Positions 3,001 through 6,000 of a stretch of 35,570 nt of DNA are shown piece by piece (positions within the stretch are counted from its first letter, which is position 1; the number at the start of each line of letters is the position of its first letter). Source of the DNA: Escherichia coli. GTDB taxonomy: Bacteria; Pseudomonadota; Gammaproteobacteria; Enterobacterales; Enterobacteriaceae. Position numbers: made by a program. The stretch lies in assembly GCF_003334385.1 (NCBI RefSeq), contig NZ_QOWN01000045.1; one strand, written 5' to 3'.

Positions 3001-6000
3001 AGCTTTCTCCTTTTTAGGTAGTTAAGTTGTTACGAGTTGCAAGAATACAACATTAACAACTTTTATCACAACTTTTAGGTGTTGGAAAGCTAAAACATAA
3101 AGTTGTAACCTCATCAAAAAAGAGAGGGATATGTTGTGAAAACACTGGCAGAACGATTAAAGATAGGTAGAGAGAAAGCTGGCATGAGCCAAGCTCAACT
3201 AGCTGAAAAAATTGGACTTTCACAACAATCTGTAGCCAAAATAGAGAATGGCGAAACTCTACAACCGCGCAAAATTAAAGAAATTGCAAAAGTTTTAGGT
3301 GTATCACAAAAGTGGTTACAACTTGGTATTGAAGACAACGCATCCATACCTGATCTTGTTGTAAAAGAAGCAGAAAGCACCGCATTAGACCCCGATATTT
3401 TCGTAAACATTCCTGTTTTAGATGTCGAGTTATCGGCAGGTAACGGATGTCTGGCTGAAATAGTTGAATCAGCTATTGACTGGTTTCCGTTAAGAAGAGC
3501 AGATTTGAGAAAATCTGGCGTATGTGCATCTAATGCCAAGATCGTAAAAATATGGGGGAACAGTTTATTACCGGTTCTCAATAATGGAGATCTTGTTGCC
3601 GTTGATATTTCTCAAACCGTTCCTATTCGTGATGGCGATCTTTATGCCGTACGAGATGGTGTATTGCTAAGGGTTAAAATACTTATCAACTTACCTGACG
3701 GTGGCTTGATTCTTAGAAGCTTCAACAAAGATGAGTACCCAGATGAAATACTCACCTTTGAAGATAGACGAGCCAGAATTCATGTTATAGGTAGGGTATT
3801 CTGGTCATCGCGAACTTGGTAATGCATCGAAAAGCATTTCTTCAGAAATAATTTTAAGTTTTGCACCATTATCATCCCTATAAGATATAGCCTTTTCGAT
3901 CTTCCTTCCGTGACTTGAGAATTTCCAATCACGGGAGGAAAGCGTCCCAATTACTAAAAAATCCAACTTTTGAGTAATTCCACTACTGATGTTCCCACCA
4001 GCATTTTTAATCAAATTTTCAACTACGGCTCTCTTTCCTGCAACAAAAGTGCCTGTAAGACAATAGGTTTTACCCTCTAACTCTATCGAAGCCCCTACAT
4101 CAATAGGCAGCCTGGTCGCCAAACCATCCACCACCCCACTTTCCAAGTCACATCCTGTGAAGTCTACTAATGCCTTATGTAGAGTTAAACTCTCATCTTC
4201 AGTAATAACACCATCTTTAAGAATTTCCTTTACAAGTGCATAAAGTTTTTTTCCTGGGTAGTTGTTCTTCAAAGCTCCATTTTGCTCAAGCCACCAATTA
4301 AGATATCTTATTTCTTCTTGAGTTAAGCTCCGATCAGCAATTAATCCTTTACATAGTCCATTAAGTAAATGGACATCTACATCCTTGGAGTAAAAATCAA
4401 TTTCAGGGATATCAAGAATTTCCCTCTGTATTTGGAGAAGGCTATTTTTAAGGTCATCACGTTCTTCTGATGTGATTATTCCATCCGCAAGAATATCCGA
4501 CACCCGTGCTGATAGACTTTTTATAACTCCATTATTGATAATCTGCTTTGCTTCAAGTAACCATGTATCTAAGTAAAGAACCTCCTCTTCACGGACAACT
4601 CCATCTGCAATGATTCCATCAATGATGCTAATCAAGTTAGCAAATAACTTGTCCCGGTTCTGTGTGTAATTAAAAGCGTAAAGCGCGTCTTCCATACAAC
4701 CTCCTTTTTTTGATAATCCTTGCACTCCTTGGCTACTCGTTCAAACCACATAAAGTTGTTGACAACATTCAAAACCACAACTAAATTACAACTTAAAGGT
4801 GTTAAAACAACGAACAGGCAGGACGCCCACGAAGTAGCCGCCGGTGGCGTATGAATGACCGGATGATTCGTTAAATACTATGTGTAAGAGAGCGTAAATG
4901 AACCGTTATTTCACATGCTCGTTTTGTGGCGCAAACGAGCTGCAGGCAAAAAAAATCATCGCCAAAGGCGGAAAAGATGAAGTTGCTATCTGCTCTGAGT
5001 GCGTAGTCTTGTGTGTCGGGGCATTAATCAATATCAGCACAACTATTCAGTTCACACCAAATGAGAATGCGCCTTTAGATGCGCGGAAATCTGGAGGTTA
5101 AAGAACAAAATGAAAGTCCAGATTTTAAACAATAGTGGTGAAGTCGTTTGGTCATACGACATAGCCGCTCCTGTAGATCAGAGCGGCGATAGCTGGACCA
5201 ATGGGAAACATCAGATTATGGCTGGAGTTGTGTTCTCTTTACGCCGTGCTTTAGAACAGGCTGAAGTATTTCCATCAGACCCTGAATGGAAATGGCCTTT
5301 TTCTATTTGTCCAAATTCGGAGAGCACATTTCAGAAAATTGGTCAGAAAGTCGCACTCGAAGAGCATCAGCCAACTGTTTCCTGATTTTTTCAGGTAACT
5401 CGTCGGCATCGCAGAAACAACAACGCTCGATCATGTTGAAAGCCGATGCGTAGAACTGTTTCTGCTGAGTGTCGCTGAGACAGGAAAAGAGCGACGTTAC
5501 GATGATTTTATTAATTGCATTATCAAGTTCTTTTTCATCAAAAGTCATTTGATTTTCCTTTTATGTATACTGGCTTAAAAGGATACCACCGAGCCTGAAG
5601 TGGTGAAAAGACAGGCACATAACAGCTAAGTATTTTCAACCAGAGAGAATCCTTAGCGTTGTGGTGAATGCGGCTCAGCGCACGCGGGTTAAGGTTGAGG
5701 CTGACAGTCGACCTTCTGTGGATACCCACCCGTCTGGTGTGCAACCTTCGCCAGGCACCGGGAGGCACCCGGCACCACAACTTTATGCTGTGTGTAGTCC
5801 TGGCGGTACCAGTTTGTACCCTTGCTTCCGGCTGGTACCGTCCTTTTTACAAAACAGAGAAGAGCATCACCGGACGACGGGCTCATAACCCAATCCATCC
5901 GGGCGGCTGCCACCGCAGGTGTTCTTCTCTGTTTTGTGGAGAAACTAATCGGCCTTGCAGGGTCGATATGATGAGGAGCAGCAAAATGGCTAGCGAACGC

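Follow-up and report, generated by a model that had tools for sequence, protein, structure and literature searches.

The interval between positions 5549 and 5985 of the window, the 35,570-nucleotide (nt) stretch of Escherichia coli contig NZ_QOWN01000045.1 (assembly GCF_003334385.1) analysed here, lies directly upstream of yfdP in a prophage. The first 10 kb of the window form the left arm of this SfV-like lambdoid prophage, which is integrated at tRNA-Thr(CGU). We favour, with appreciable reserve, the interpretation of the interval as a small RNA (sRNA) gene whose terminator doubles as a gate of the early-left operon, and whose read-through transcripts yield a structured yfdP leader that is probably processed by RNase III. 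The plus strand of this cassette would encode an sRNA of ~192 nt (5657-5848), composed of a pseudoknotted 5' domain, a single-stranded linker and an intrinsic terminator. Judged by its sequence, the element appears to be a relative of known prophage sRNAs and a chimera of STnc100, sRNA-17 and DicF features. Fold, covariation, homology, position and prevalence derive from the analysis of the window; expression, transcript ends, Hfq dependence and the barrier effect derive from the literature on homologues.

The 5' domain (5658-5781, plus strand, 124 nt) is a real, complex RNA fold, because every one of its five helices and its pseudoknot covary across ~50 phage sequence clusters. It is closed by helix P1 (5658-5666/5773-5781), recovered by folding and covariation alike, and contains the hairpins H1 (5670-5685), Hb (5732-5739/5749-5756) and HE (5758-5772), the last with the invariant loop AGGCA. 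The Hb loop complements a segment located at a constant distance behind H1, and in the window this pseudoknot pairs AAGGUUG (5691-5697) with CAACCUU (5742-5748). The relatives were obtained by scanning IMG/VR with two motifs from opposite ends of the domain, which yielded more than 200 loci in ~50 clusters and two subtypes; the first hairpin is CCCCCUnnGCGGnGGGG in the canonical A-type and GCGGCUnAGCGCACGC in the B-type, to which the window belongs. Column-wise covariation on the MAFFT alignment (A2) was abandoned because the Hb and pseudoknot strands were out of register between the subtypes, and anchor-based counts with shuffle controls were used instead.

Substitutions in this domain follow the pairing throughout. 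The outer five pairs of P1 (positions 5-9) covary among U-A, C-G, A-U and G-C, and the H1 stem is found in at least four versions (CCCC/GGGG, GCG/CGC, CUUU/AAAG and CUAC/GUAG). Hb is formed by 33 distinct strand pairs among 45 representatives, with a mean of 6.98 consecutive pairs against 2.96 in shuffled controls. The HE stem reads CCGGG/CCCGG in 76 sequences and CCUGG/CCAGG in 50 around its constant loop, and the pseudoknot occurs elsewhere as CCAGUC/GACUGG, AUCAGCA/UGCUGAU, CAGUUAA/UUAACUG, AGACUGACA/UGUCAGUCU and other pairs. Invariant across types are GGUGAAU, the H1 loop UNNGC and the HE loop. An initial annotation of the interval, made from the window sequence alone, had proposed folding and covariance analysis across homologous prophages as a check; the pairing is indeed conserved among them, and compensatory changes are present.

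A permissive Rfam search places the interval close to STnc100 (RF02076), with a plus-strand match at 5628-5850 (41.2 bits, E = 1.9e-7) that covers model positions 1-206. The window RNA shares with STnc100 and PasD the GGUGAAU motif with its AAU junction, the GGUG/CACC closing helix, the hairpin CC(G/U)GG-AGGCA-CC(C/A)GG abutting the 3' strand of that helix (within CACC(G/U)GGAGGCACC(C/A)GGCACC) and the order of the inner hairpins, each of which either stays constant or covaries among 45-131 distinct relatives. The 3' parts likewise correspond: a single-stranded stretch (5782-5801 in the window) is followed by a Rho-independent terminator, here the hairpin at 5802-5842 with U5, and both RNAs reside in lambdoid prophages. 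Up to 11 STnc100 copies are expressed in enterohaemorrhagic E. coli (EHEC), one of them verified by Northern blot, and some lie downstream of stx2. The related PasD sRNAs of EHEC and enteropathogenic E. coli (EPEC) prophages are Hfq-dependent and were detected by ligation and sequencing of interacting RNAs (RIL-seq). The window RNA differs from STnc100 in its B-type first hairpin and in its location, since canonical copies belong to the late region (after Q/PR', upstream of lysis genes and downstream of stx2) whereas the window copy is early-left. A terminator follows P1 after 34-77 nt in ~20 A-type clusters. In one relative (L013) the element has a Q-like antiterminator gene on one side and the holin and endolysin genes on the other, which is the PR' leader position of the lambda 6S RNA. 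Several IMG/VR contigs (L005, L018, L019 and L118) harbour the domain in two or three copies, some of them arranged in tandem at a spacing of ~220-500 bp and each with its own terminator; L005 combines A-type and B-type copies. PasB was ruled out as the identity of the window RNA, as it lies among phage structural genes. A tie of the domain to a particular Q type was ruled out for this phage: SfV has one copy only, and its PR' leader is lambda-like.

The positional homologue of the window RNA is sRNA-17 of E. coli K1 RS218, a 193-nt RNA by 5' and 3' rapid amplification of cDNA ends (RACE) and Northern blot, which resides in an mEp460-like prophage (Sun et al. 2020, PMC7719688). The oligonucleotides listed in the primer table for RACE and Northern blot detect the yfdP-sense strand (PMC7719688). 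By means of these published primers, which span CGUUGUGGUGAAUGCG to CUGGUACCGCUCUUUU, sRNA-17 was mapped onto phage mEp460 (L222) and then aligned with the window, where its ends correspond to 5657 and ~5848 (192 nt) and both are conserved. The two RNAs occupy the same early-left slot upstream of yfdP and on the yfdP strand, extend from the GUUGUGGUG helix to the GGCGGUACCAG..CUGGUACCG terminator, have about the same length (193 versus ~192 nt) and the same 5' closing-helix sequence CGUUGUGGUGAAUGCG; the terminator hairpin and the long hairpin downstream of it are near-identical. They are not identical over their full length, as they have in common only the initial ~20 nt and the final ~50 nt. 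sRNA-17 has an inner 5' domain of "C-type" fold without the GGAGGCAC hairpin, its single-stranded stretch is AGCCACUGCUU instead of UUUAUGCUGUGUGUAGUCC in the window, and the sequence upstream of the window cassette differs from that of RS218 and mEp460. Regulation by ArcA (repression) and a blood-survival phenotype are reported for sRNA-17 only (PMC7719688).

Deletion of sRNA-17 raised yfdP by a log2 of 6.6 (~95-fold), and yfdR was up as well (PMC7719688). The deletion also took out the 5' arm of the terminator, and the simplest reading of the derepression of yfdP is consequently a cis effect, the loss of a functional terminator. In the Datsenko-Wanner design the resistance cassette, if retained, should lie antisense to yfdP.

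A second well-characterised relative is DicF, which is known as a 190-nt form that depends on RNase III and a 53-nt form that depends on RNase E. The window shares with the dicBF operon of prophage Qin the type of operon and a lambdoid early-left cassette with a ~190-nt long form, in which a 5' domain closed by a GUUGUGG..CAAC helix is followed by the seed and then by the terminator. The 5' arm of the terminator (UGGCGGUACCAGUUU in the window) is almost that of DicF, with UGGCGGUA(C/U)CAGUUU common to K-12 DicF and the window. The DicF seed UUUCUGGUGACGUUU is replaced in the window, and the DicF targets ftsZ, xylR and pykA are therefore not expected. Counting 190 nt back from the DicF 3' end leads to within a few nt of the GUUGUGGC..GCUGCAAC helix (L225 952-1066 and L227-type loci). 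The 5' domain of K-12 DicF is ~92% identical to the yfdP-upstream domain in 29 other phage sequences and, from this comparison, appears to be a swappable module.

The domain type found in the window also occurs at the dicBF locus itself. The dicF-dicB spacer of K-12 MG1655 (L225 1147-1287) contains a B-type domain, with a sub-threshold STnc100 match of 34.1 bits (E = 1.1e-5), which ends ~25 nt before the ribosome-binding site of dicB; no mention of it was found in the DicF literature consulted. In Qin this B-type domain follows DicF, whereas in the window it precedes the seed and terminator. In a Qin-like phage (L124 8205-8757), ~550 nt of noncoding sequence separate a minus-strand open reading frame (ORF) from dicB, and the DicF 5' domain, DicF and the B-type domain succeed each other in this unusually long structured leader.

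Following the 5' domain, the GU-rich linker (5782-5801, plus strand) is unpaired in the centroid fold and carries the candidate seed UUUAUGCUGUGUGUAGUCCU. Its core UGCUGUGU(G/A)(U/A)AGUC is kept in two relatives, L037 and the Salmonella-type homologue L184, despite their different terminators, and we infer that it would serve as a base-pairing seed. A pairing of this seed with the yfdP start region (UGCUGU with GCAGCA) appears in the fold and was discarded as being at about chance level. Complements of the seed elsewhere in the window number 3 against 2.1 expected, which is likewise not above chance.

The linker runs into a DicF-like intrinsic terminator (5802-5848, plus strand), found as an inverted repeat and in the fold. 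It consists of a GC-rich 11-bp stem (5802-5812/5832-5842, with CGGTACCAG at 5804-5812 and CTGGTACCG at 5832-5840), a 19-nt loop, a C and the run of five U (T5 at 5844-5848), and is accordingly predicted to terminate transcription. In L184 the sequence of the stem is replaced and the U-tract is kept. The terminator-like hairpin that had been noted at 5806-5850 is thus real, though its start was given 2 nt off, as CGGTACCAG begins at 5804.

The terminator overlaps with a Y-shaped hairpin of 99 nt (5844-5942, plus strand), which has a 25-bp basal stem (5844-5868/5918-5942) and two apical hairpins. A 12-bp inverted repeat recorded earlier at 5851-5862/5924-5935 is exact and forms the core of the basal stem. 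In the consensus fold of 15 variants all 25 basal pairs are kept in every one, with one pair changing from G-C to A-U or C-G and several switches between G-U and Watson-Crick pairs, and in the apical hairpins both strands vary; because the search pattern constrained part of the 3' arm, the lower stem is uninformative. The second hairpin is not an intrinsic terminator, because its U-run is base-paired within the 25-bp stem (GUUUUGUGGAGAA with UUUUUACAAAAC). Of the tandem terminators proposed in the initial annotation, the first hairpin stands as terminator-like and near-identical to the end of sRNA-17, and the second falls for lack of a free U-tail; the accompanying notion that expression from yfdP to int has to pass a terminator remains a reasonable one. 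In one relative (L238) the start of the cassette lies ~10 nt behind an operator-flanked promoter of the PL type. With its near-continuous double-stranded RNA, which exceeds the at least ~20 bp of an RNase III substrate, the basal stem is predicted to be cleavable by this enzyme and is likely a site of RNase III processing or of RNA stability. Further downstream, the yfdP leader contains a small hairpin (CGGCC-UUGCAG-GGUCG, 5950-5965, plus strand), present in the folds and with double changes at 3 of its 5 pairs across variants. It is followed by the yfdP ribosome-binding site GAGGAG (5973-5978) and start codon ATG (5986-5988), placed according to SfV orf32 and the coordinates of the Prokaryotic Genome Annotation Pipeline (PGAP); the gene belongs to PHROG family phrog_204.

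Comparable arrangements are known from phage lambda. The 6S RNA, from the PR'-tR' leader, is a short leader RNA that ends at a terminator which expression of the operon must pass, and the N leader has a long hairpin between the leader terminator and the first gene. It is the RNase III site of the N leader that the 25-bp duplex resembles in this position. There is no sequence relation to either lambda RNA, and no Q- or N-type factor was identified for the operon in the window.

As a whole, the interval is distinguished by its composition and folding. The GC content is 0.54-0.57 across 5600-5999 and 0.38-0.46 in the flanks, and the stretch 5620-5990 folds with -159.1 kcal/mol (z = -6.87), which none of 100 shuffled sequences equalled. 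The fold of 5840-5990 (z = -5.46) indicates that the long hairpin gives most of this signal. The interval is bounded on the right by the yfdP start at 5986 and on the left by either 5548, the start of a minus-strand ORF, or 5385, the end of a plus-strand ORF. The GC profile, inverted repeats and folding bear out the description of 5549-5985 as GC-rich, hairpin-rich and noncoding, and the structured RNA such as an sRNA, which the initial annotation had offered as an alternative, is supported by the full-length STnc100 match, by the position and ends of sRNA-17 and by the extensive covariation.

Several observations weigh against the interpretation as an sRNA gene. The sRNA unit alone (5657-5849) is thermodynamically unremarkable (z = -1.47), and support for it comes from covariation, not from folding energy. 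The STnc100 match of 41.2 bits stays below the gathering threshold of 47 and is absent from the search run at that threshold, which found no Rfam family inside the interval. The match to DicF (RF00039) at 5789-5843 is weak (15.7 bits, E = 1.4, threshold 48). A simple terminator scan missed the first hairpin, whose loop of 19 nt is unusually long and beyond the range of the scan. Neither a promoter scan nor inspection by eye found a convincing sigma-70 promoter directly upstream of 5657, the best candidate by eye being AAGACA-17-TATTTT with 8 of 12 matches. The 6 bp by which the seed complements the yfdP initiation region are not conserved in L184, and the evidence for expression derives from homologues. 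Finally, the 5' domain probably does something beyond the sRNA model, because a passive 5' structure would not need a conserved pseudoknotted fold.

If the interval is an sRNA gene nevertheless, its operation could be envisaged as follows. Transcription from the early-left promoter PL, the presumed upstream source, would reach the cassette and produce the ~192-nt RNA. We infer the later processing steps, the targets and the role of the long hairpin: by analogy with DicF, a cut by RNase E just after P1 would release a short form of ~67 nt, and the RNA would act in trans on mRNAs together with Hfq. In cis, the terminator would be a barrier behind which yfdP-yfdT, xis and int stay silent except when RNA polymerase passes it, and read-through transcripts would carry the Y-shaped hairpin and the small hairpin as the 5' leader of yfdP. 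A terminator that gates the expression of xis and int would also gate excision of the prophage.

The complexity of the 5' domain raises the question whether it has an activity of its own. That it represents a regulatory phage RNA of a distinct and widespread class, pooling the sensor, ribozyme, processing-signal and antitermination variants, seems possible to us but rather unlikely, and RNA polymerase, Rho, the ribosome, a nuclease or a small ligand could be candidate partners. The domain is common to STnc100/PasD, the K-12 dicF-dicB spacer, the Q/PR' late leaders and the yfdP leader of the window. If such a class existed, it would be a plug-in 5' module placed before sRNA seeds and before genes that are toxic or timed (dicB, those for lysis, the early-left operon), and sRNA function would be only one of its outputs. 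In one form of this idea, the pseudoknotted domain is an autonomous RNA (ligand sensor, ribozyme, or a tRNA-like signal for processing or protein binding) that governs what lies downstream, with the sRNA role secondary. The invariant loops and junctions (GGUGAAU, UNNGC, AGGCA), covarying helices and pseudoknot are what such an RNA would display, and the known 5' ends of relatives coincide with the start of P1. B-type copies moreover lie mostly 27-40 nt upstream of a start codon with no intervening terminator (12-15 clusters, including dicB in K-12), the largest group being situated between the DicF terminator and dicB. However, the interval matches none of the Rfam families of riboswitches or ribozymes, and ARAGORN finds no tRNA-like gene in it; inspection by eye showed no alternative pairing to ribosome-binding sites downstream; long DicF owes its 5' end to RNase III; and the domain is replaceable by others at the yfdP locus. 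We therefore regard an autonomous RNA of this kind as improbable.

Alternatively, the domain may be a self-sufficient cis-acting RNA for processive antitermination, comparable to HK022 put or the Bacillus EAR element, which would bind the RNA polymerase transcribing it and carry that polymerase past the terminator at 5848 and later ones and let a phage without N express yfdP to int. There is indeed no N-like gene between PL and the cassette, and a conserved complex fold immediately precedes terminators or genes, in every case in the same orientation as these. Several A-type copies begin 3-6 nt downstream of near-consensus sigma-70 promoters. In L238, the promoter ~10 nt ahead of the cassette lies within an operator palindrome beside the repressor gene; the cassette is the PL leader itself there, as putL is in HK022. 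The likeness to put is that of a structured phage leader RNA in the early operon of an N-less lambdoid phage, upstream of terminators. Yet put is a ~70-nt, two-stem, V-shaped RNA, in contrast to the 124 nt, five helices and pseudoknot of the window domain, and no motif of the window occurs in HK022 (20000-40751). RNAs of the window family also accumulate as terminated species of ~190-210 nt that end right after the domain, and the ~95-fold rise of yfdP upon deletion of the sRNA-17 region implies that the terminator just after the domain is efficient in the lysogen. Late-promoter A-type copies still adjoin a Q antiterminator gene, the slot can be filled by unrelated domains (B, C, D and short type) or none (L237), and the domain of dicB operons is found downstream of the DicF terminator instead of upstream. 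A self-sufficient antiterminating RNA appears to us quite improbable on this balance.

Two readings that dispense with a functional RNA fare worse. That the repeats act as DNA, i.e., as operators, a recombination site or module-exchange junctions, is very unlikely, although mosaic breakpoints coincide with the P1 strands and the terminator, and the P1 sequences GTTGTGGT/ACCACAAC are common to otherwise unrelated inserts. The G-U pairs, U-tract, Rfam match and RACE data point to a plus-strand RNA, and the true operator repeats are located at 4748-4802. Immunity operators in particular can be rejected, because the region remains 96-99% identical among phages with different repressors. We consider it hardly tenable that the interval encodes a protein, either a YmfH-like ORF or an N-terminal extension of YfdP. 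Between 5668 and 6348 a frame of 226 amino acids (aa) stays open in register with yfdP, the homologous stretch carries the annotation ymfH in K-12, and PGAP places a "frameshifted hypothetical protein" over the equivalent of 5661-5971 in strains other than K-12. The earlier statement that no convincing ORF is present was thus correct in that there is no conserved gene, but it overlooked this frame running into yfdP. The homologue L184 is open in another frame and separated from the window by indels that are not multiples of three, and the PGAP coding sequence is itself frameshifted; the protein-coding reading was rejected on these grounds. Furthermore, the translation is rich in Arg, Cys and Gly without a family match of its own, substitutions track base-pairing and not codons, and yfdP has its own strong ribosome-binding site.

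The sRNA gene interpretation gains a wider frame from the modular composition of the cassette, which was traced by scanning with a 17-mer from the long hairpin and clustering the sequence upstream of it. The slot between GUUGUGGU and ACCACAAC holds different inserts in different phages: the B-type domain (window, e14, SfV), the sRNA-17 domain, a DicF-type domain, a short domain (L270) or none (L237). The seed, the terminator and the gene that comes first downstream (yfdP, xisE and others) differ as well. DicF, sRNA-17 and the window RNA would on this comparative basis be representatives of one cassette design, a modular prophage sRNA with interchangeable 5' domain, seed and terminator. Such a view would join three separate literatures (STnc100/PasD, sRNA-17 and DicF), offer a cis explanation for the derepression of yfdP and identify a terminator that gates xis and int. 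The conserved pseudoknotted 5' domain is a clearly delimited object for studies of structure and mechanism.

Of 5426 complete E. coli genomes, 2109 (~39%) carry the unit, and the cassette likewise occurs in the Shigella serotype-converting phages SfV, SfII and SfIV and in prophage e14 of K-12. In SfV the interval is unannotated and shows 99.5% identity to that of the window. In e14 of K-12 BW25113 (L226 2537-2848), ymfH overlaps with a 93%-identical copy of the cassette directly upstream of xisE, and ymfH is probably not a protein gene. The last hairpin of the e14 copy is damaged (GGGAGGC to GGGGGC and CCCGG to CCCGA). Database annotation of the cassette accordingly ranges from nothing over a frameshifted pseudogene to the protein gene ymfH.

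Two further hairpins precede the sRNA unit. Homology to many phages begins at 5582-5586 (query positions 34-38), and the conserved left edge of the mobile cassette (5583-5624, plus strand) recurs in e14 and in IMG/VR relatives. It includes the hairpin ACCACCGAGCCUGAAGUGGU (5585-5604), which on the minus strand is followed by AUCCUUUUAA, scores as terminator-like and might stop antisense transcription before the minus-strand ORF. The hairpin P0 (GCUAAG..CUUAGC, 5625-5657, plus strand) is present in the minimum-free-energy and centroid folds and abuts the closing helix; an equivalent hairpin of different sequence is found in L184 and mEp460.

The left arm of the prophage has the order cro-like and CII-like genes, cI-type repressor, BRCT-domain ORF, two small plus-strand ORFs, the interval and yfdP, followed by yfdQ, yfdR, yfdS, yfdT, xis and int. 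The cro-like gene occupies 2752-3000 on the minus strand and the repressor gene 3136-3822 on the plus strand. The BRCT-domain ORF (3805-4725, minus strand, 306 aa) lies between the repressor gene and PL, a location typical of a moron or accessory gene. A promoter scan found the near-consensus TTGACA-17-TAAATT at 4759-4787 (with flanking operator repeats, 4759-4802, plus strand), which is very probably PL with its operators, because the flanking repeats recur between cro and cI. These repeats, ACATAAAGTTGT, ACAACATTnAnAAC and ACAACTTnnAGGTGT, are found around 4748-4802 and again in the cro/cI intergenic region at 3047-3106, and the two sites are probably OL/PL and OR. The interval is thereby ~800 nt downstream of PL, within the early-left operon. 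Two ORFs, at 5110-5385 (plus strand) and 5303-5548 (minus strand, with a good ribosome-binding site), overlap each other in antisense by 83 nt and have a PHROG family each (phrog_3195 and phrog_3311); PGAP retains only the former ORF. The sole tRNA or tmRNA call by ARAGORN in the window is thrW (9965-10040). In the chromosomal part, Rfam matches a group II intron domain (D1-D4-2) at 34007-34127 on the minus strand (81.8 bits), and three naRNA4/REP-type repeats of 73-77 bits lie on the minus strand at 23855-23932, 24597-24674 and 27926-28003.

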